From Escherichia coli (GTDB lineage: Bacteria; Pseudomonadota; Gammaproteobacteria; Enterobacterales; Enterobacteriaceae), in assembly GCF_003334385.1 (NCBI RefSeq), contig NZ_QOWN01000211.1: a DNA stretch of 300 nt, one strand, 5' to 3'. Of this stretch, positions 1-300 are shown in pieces; the first letter of the stretch is position 1, and each line of letters opens with the position of its first letter. The translations under genes and the position numbers were made by a program. Below the pieces are notes generated by a model. It was not told the origin of the DNA. It did not search any database and was given only the letters and a program-made list of their open reading frames with translations.

Positions 1-300
1 GCCACTGCCATTGAAGCCGGTGATGAACGTCGCGCCCGCGCAAAATTTCACTGGCAATTCCTGGAACATTATCCGGCTGCTCAGGACTGCGCTTATAAAT
101 TTCTTGTCTGCGAGGATAAACCCGGTATACCCCGCCCTGCCCTAGATTCCTGGGATGCTGAATATATGCAGGAAAACCGCTGGGATGAGGCGTCTGCTTC
201 CTTTGTCCCGGTTGAGACTGAATCAGATCCGATGAACGTCACTTTTGACAAGCTGGCCCCTGAAGTACAGAACGCTGTCATGGTTAAGTTCGACACATGT
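1..300 (+). CDS. Partial CDS (internal fragment, both ends outside the window) encoding an acidic hypothetical protein of unknown family; at least 100 codons
   Basis: Seen in sequence: frame 1 has no stop codon across 100 codons, whereas frame 2 hits TAG at 142-144 and frame 3 hits TGA at 10-12. Arg codons are exclusively CGT/CGC (28-30, 31-33, 37-39, 133-135, 178-180), with no AGA/AGG/CGA/CGG. Leu is mostly CTG, Glu mostly GAA, Gly is GGT. Amino-acid composition is protein-like, with 3 Trp, 3 Cys and a mix of hydrophobic and charged residues. No in-window start: the internal ATGs at 166, 232 and 280 lack a well-placed Shine-Dalgarno. Product identity was not determined. Confidence 0.78.

Follow-up and report, generated by a model that had tools for sequence, protein, structure and literature searches.

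Exact direct repeats of about 10 bases can serve as deletion end-points in Escherichia coli, as the lacI deletion spectra and plasmid assays illustrate. The 300-base stretch of E. coli DNA analysed here (the window) carries a repeat that is similar in being about 10 bases long, with its copies a few hundred bases apart on the same strand. In contrast to the lacI and plasmid end-points, no product of deletion or duplication between the copies of this repeat, GATGAACGTC, was seen in 5,426 complete E. coli genomes; it has no nearby partial homology that would extend it, and no sign of being a hotspot.

The repeat can also be compared with the background class of short direct repeats that occur by chance in coding DNA. 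Like these, it is an exact 10-mer with unlike flanks, lies in different reading frames and varies at synonymous sites; its frequency fits the 11% of windows that contain such a repeat, and nothing sets GATGAACGTC apart. A third comparison concerns the gene, which shares its gene order with the exonuclease of PPompW / Qin / CP-933P-type lambdoid prophages. This element is the context that carries the repeat and offers no explanation for it, and the literature on ydfE and the Qin prophage yielded nothing bearing on it. We consider it about 95% probable that the repeat is a functionless coincidence of codon choice, present in one sub-lineage of a common prophage exonuclease gene.

The window is part of a widespread prophage exonuclease gene

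The window corresponds to codons 25-124 of an 830-residue prophage exonuclease gene and was placed on a locus of E. coli strain NCTC86 (L001). Since it equals L001 6001-6300 inside CDS 5929-8421, codon 25 begins at window base 1, and the true frame is frame 1, which is open across the whole window. The features referred to below are as follows.

Window 1..300, + strand: exonuclease codons 25-124, 100% identical to L001 6001-6300 within CDS 5929-8421 (WP_021533631.1)
Window 22..31, + strand: copy 1 of GATGAACGTC, GAT GAA CGT C, encoding Asp-Glu-Arg (residues 32-34 of the full protein)
Window 231..240, + strand: copy 2 of GATGAACGTC, (cc)G ATG AAC GTC, encoding Pro-Met-Asn-Val (residues 101-104 of the full protein)
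L001 4356-4407, 4647-4723 and 4748-4835: Rfam matches to the DicF, isrK and C4 RNAs, respectively

Of 5,426 complete E. coli genomes, 3,885 have a match to the window; the matching places total 6,710, and their annotation reads 'exonuclease' or '3'-5' exonuclease'. Many E. coli chromosomes are 100% identical to the window, and Escherichia phage Evi is 99.3% identical. The host element is a lambdoid prophage inserted at ompW, with its other end about 56 kb away in NCTC86, and the local gene order is dicB - ydfD/DUF1482 - exonuclease - xis - int. Upstream of dicB, the matches to DicF RNA, the isrK Hfq-binding RNA and the C4 antisense RNA all exceed the Rfam gathering score; those to isrK and C4 lie at the start of a gene for a Rha-family regulator (L001 4596-5450).

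The exonuclease gene is homologous to ydfE of the K-12 Qin prophage. The Qin copy (94.7% identity), which we take to be the ydfE locus, is truncated by IS2: a remnant of this element ends the gene after 768 bases (L087 2929-3696). The B-strain copy (L086 2929-3426) breaks off after 498 bases, with xisR following immediately. Neither truncation is connected with the repeat, and both are found downstream of the window.

Domain structure of the exonuclease

The protein matches the phrog_2082 profile ('exonuclease') over residues 1-830 (profile positions 1-823, 1861.8 bits), and this full-length match, together with a C-terminal DEDD-type 3'-5' exonuclease domain, places it in PHROG 2082. Its only Pfam domain is C-terminal (PF16473, Rv2179c-like; residues 649-820, E 3.4e-67), so that the part encoded by the window contains none. 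N-terminal residues 1-257 match phrog_5943, a family of unknown function, and residues 245-632 are similar to the central part of the RecE model NF007259 (NCBIfam; positions 270-602 of 877). We rejected an identity as RecE (exodeoxyribonuclease VIII), as the score for this model is 269.5 bits against a cut-off of 1269 and the C-terminal RecE nuclease domain is not matched. Based on these profile matches, the protein is a predicted mosaic of a phrog_5943 N-terminus, a RecE-like non-catalytic middle and an Rv2179c-like DEDD 3'-5' exonuclease C-terminus. Gene labels are inconsistent, and include exonuclease, 3'-5' exonuclease, exonuclease VIII, phage-associated endonuclease and exodeoxyribonuclease of CP-933P.

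A tblastn search with the 100 residues of the window against 50,697 phage records matched 17 E. coli phages, all at 92% identity or more, and found no relatives below 92%. Thus, the N-terminal module appears to be narrowly distributed. About 1.2 kb downstream of the window, two adjacent tandem arrays with a 21-base unit (L001 7456-7550) comprise 2.3 copies with 82% matches and 2.5 copies with 96% matches. The reiterated peptide that they encode, QNSPNAL-QNSPNAL-QNEPE, belongs to an acidic linker of low complexity that precedes the exonuclease domain. Unlike the 10-mer, these arrays are a genuine slippage-type repeat.

Extent and reading frames of the repeat

An earlier note on this DNA had reported an exact direct repeat at 22-31 and 231-240 that is not a duplicated protein motif, and both statements hold. 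There are exactly two copies of GATGAACGTC, both on the + strand and 209 bases apart from start to start, and a search of both strands of the 300-base window found no third. The identity stops at 10 bases on either side (t at base 21 against c at base 230, and g at base 32 against a at base 241), and the flanks of the two copies show no similarity beyond the core. Copy 1 is read in frame 1 from its first base, and copy 2 begins at a third codon position. With window frame 1 as the annotated CDS frame, the copies encode D-E-R and (P)-M-N-V, respectively, and a duplicated protein motif is rejected.

No dyad symmetry or inverted repeat involving the 10-mer was found in the window. The search for other or longer repeats there returned just two 8-base direct repeats, ATTCCTGG and CTGGGATG (57-64/146-153 and 150-157/180-187), and an AT-rich 10-base near-palindrome at 158-171. 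These are at chance level, as most shuffled versions of the window contain the like.

Frequency of comparable repeats and of the 10-mer

The earlier note had put the chance of such a repeat at a few percent. This is right for random sequence: the longest direct repeat reached 10 bases or more in 3.4% of 5,000 dinucleotide-preserving shuffles of the window and in 5.1% of 5,000 codon shuffles. For real DNA it is an understatement. We cut 837 non-overlapping 300-base windows from 252 kb of the NCTC86 chromosome, the same prophage and the related phage Evi, and 92 of them (11%) contain an exact, non-overlapping direct repeat of at least 10 bases. The rate is 8% in three stretches of core chromosome and 13-20% in prophage DNA. 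An expectation of 0.00 applies to a single 10-mer fixed in advance and is the wrong null for a repeat picked after reading the sequence.

A search for over-representation of the 10-mer, which the earlier note had proposed, points to chance frequency. The count covered about 250 kb, part of a genome, and took in a 12.3-kb locus, the rest of the prophage (50 kb), three stretches of chromosome of 50 kb each and phage Evi (40 kb). In the 212 kb of NCTC86 covered, there is a single occurrence of GATGAACGTC outside the two copies, where a Markov model predicts 0.4-0.7. It is absent from the remaining 50 kb of the ~56-kb prophage and from elsewhere in the 40 kb of Evi. Matches with one mismatch in Evi are at chance level (5 found against 2.3 expected, with 12 of 100 shuffles reaching 5).

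Variation of the two copies among homologous alleles

We compared 88 homologous copies of the window, made up of 80 viral-contig loci, 7 E. coli loci picked at successively lower ranks of identity, and phage Evi. Among them are 43 distinct alleles with 89-100% identity to the window. The whole repeat is kept in 62 of the 88, and its presence follows identity to the window: 59 of the 60 alleles with at least 97% identity have it intact, as do 3 of 17 at 95-97% and none of the 11 below 95%.

Copy 1 occurs as GATGAACGTC in 63 alleles, GACGAACGCC in 24 and GACGAACGTC in one. The 25 changed alleles include 10 of the 11 below 95% identity; in the eleventh, both copies are altered. The K-12 Qin, B-strain and 89%-identical alleles all have GACGAACGCC. 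All three forms encode Asp-Glu-Arg, and they differ solely at positions 24 and 30, both of them synonymous third positions. Copy 2 is unchanged in 87 of the 88 alleles, and the single exception, GATGAACATC (Val to Ile), also has a changed copy 1. Positions 230 and 241, which flank copy 2, are variable. In some alleles CTG (Leu) replaces CCG (Pro) before copy 2 (window position 230), and where copy 1 is intact the repeat then grows to 11 bases (TGATGAACGTC; 3 of the 88 sampled alleles).

Across the complete genomes, the best copy is less than 95% identical to the window in 1,933 of 3,896 matching records. By extrapolation from our allele sample, the best copy probably lacks the repeat in about half of the genomes that have a match.

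Variable sites in the window number 17, 6 and 38 at first, second and third codon positions, and none of the 43 distinct alleles has a stop codon in the window. Variation is dominated by third positions and stop codons are absent, and therefore selection acts on the protein. At the DNA level, the copies are not conserved beyond neutral expectation, copy 1 differing in 25 of 88 alleles by synonymous changes only. Copy 2 varies less than 10 bases of the window do on average (about 1.6 variable sites among the first 81 loci). Its near-invariance is within expectation because ATG has no synonymous codon and most of the sampled alleles are closely related.

Possible roles as DNA-binding sites or as an internal start

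Two identical 10-mers placed in helical phase inside a coding sequence could form a pair of sites bound by a protein of the phage or the host, or belong to a dispersed family. At a distance of 209 bases, or about 20 helical turns, both copies would lie on the same face of the DNA, and copy 2 is nearly invariant in our sample. However, copy 1 carries one or two substitutions in more than a quarter of the alleles, among them nearly all of the most divergent, and these substitutions are exactly the synonymous ones that neutral drift predicts. Further copies are lacking in the prophage and in Evi, where near-matches do not exceed chance, and the 10-mers have neither flanking similarity nor dyad symmetry. 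We regard paired sites as extremely unlikely. A putative in-phase pair that evolved recently, in the sub-lineage with both copies, could be bound by a prophage or host protein and, for example, cause looping or pausing during transcription of the early-left operon; to this version, too, we attach hardly any weight.

Copy 2 also contains an in-frame ATG (232-234), which could be an internal start (M-N-V-T-F-D) for a shorter exonuclease isoform, with the likeness to copy 1 being incidental. The 15 bases upstream (gactgaatcagatcc), however, contain no recognisable Shine-Dalgarno sequence, and none of the annotated records inspected begins the gene there. The 100 codons upstream are, moreover, conserved as protein, with variation mostly at third positions and no stop codons. 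An internal start, which we think scarcely credible, would in any case leave the repeat unexplained.

The earlier note had seen no other evidence of function, and our searches agree with it. Rfam has no family in the window, the nearest being the DicF, isrK and C4 RNAs 1.2-1.6 kb upstream, and no promoter-like or terminator-like site was found in the window; two terminator-like matches nearby fall outside it.

Deletion or duplication between the copies

The repeat could also be a short-homology substrate for deletion, as the earlier note had suggested. If replication slippage or RecA-independent recombination joined the copies, 209 bases would be lost and the exonuclease inactivated, making the repeat a mutational on/off point. 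Any exact direct repeat of about 10 bases could in principle serve as such an end-point, and most alleles of at least 97% identity have both copies. Against this, 209 is not a multiple of 3, and the product would be a frameshifted pseudogene without obvious benefit.

We searched for the predicted deletion junction, CTGCCATTGAAGCCGGTGATGAACGTCACTTTTGACAAGCTGGC, with a 44-base query (17 bases, the repeat and 17 bases), of which a normal allele matches at most 27 bases, one below the 28-base megablast word. No match spans the junction in the 5,426 complete E. coli genomes, which hold 6,710 copies of the region. The query gave 106 matches, all of them partial (28-29 bases) and in normal alleles, because single-base variants adjoin a copy. 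One 28-base partial match, found in 105 genomes, corresponds to the CTG variant. In the same genomes, the junction of the reciprocal duplication likewise gave nothing but partial matches. Alleles able to form these junctions hold both copies and are at least ~96% identical to the window, and the sensitivity of the test should be good, though a rearranged allele with base differences close to the junction could escape it.

The truncations that do occur in this gene arose otherwise, by IS2 in K-12 and by a break at base 498 in the B strain, and 11% of comparable windows offer an equally good substrate. Deletion between the copies is largely refuted as a population-level phenomenon, and we judge a role for the repeat as a deletion substrate very unlikely. 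What stands of the earlier suggestion is that such a deletion is physically possible, as for any short direct repeat; the deletion variants ending at the repeats, which the note had proposed looking for, are absent from the 5,426 complete genomes.

A probable origin by synonymous change in copy 1

The haplotypes that differ in copy 1 differ at a whole run of synonymous third positions (18, 21, 24, 30, 33 and 36). We considered whether copy 2 had served as a template for copy 1, through templated mutation or gene conversion, and rejected it: the synonymous sites 18, 21, 33 and 36, outside the repeat, also differ; the C-to-T change at position 21 leaves copy 1 with a preceding base unlike that of copy 2; and GACGAACGTC represents a one-step intermediate.

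The reading of the repeat as a coincidence of codon choice suggests a simple history. The older form of copy 1, and the more widespread one, would be GAC GAA CGC C. One sub-lineage would then have acquired T for C at the third positions 24 and 30, both times without a change of amino acid, which made copy 1 match copy 2; the match would therefore be recent. GAC...CGC is probably the ancestral state, because the most divergent alleles all carry it. On this reading, the codons of two unrelated parts of the gene happen to spell the same ten bases in different frames, and selection would preserve the protein sequence of the N-terminal part of the exonuclease, not the DNA repeat.

Discussion

The earlier note had held that the 10-mer at chance frequency genome-wide, with no positional conservation in homologous genes, would speak against its suggestion of a role. 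We found one further occurrence against 0.4-0.7 expected in 212 kb, and copy 1 is not conserved. Any sequence-level function of the repeat is, in our view, highly improbable, and what might be left to it is use as an occasional, unremarkable deletion end-point, as for any 10-base repeat.

The repeat would thus be without biological importance, and the worth of the check lies in its negative result. Exact 10-base direct repeats occur in about one in nine 300-base windows of real E. coli and prophage DNA, and therefore such a repeat should not be flagged unless flanking similarity, conservation or over-representation accompanies it. The analysis has also shown what the window is, namely a piece of a prophage exonuclease gene that is very common, being carried by 3,885 of 5,426 complete E. 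coli genomes.
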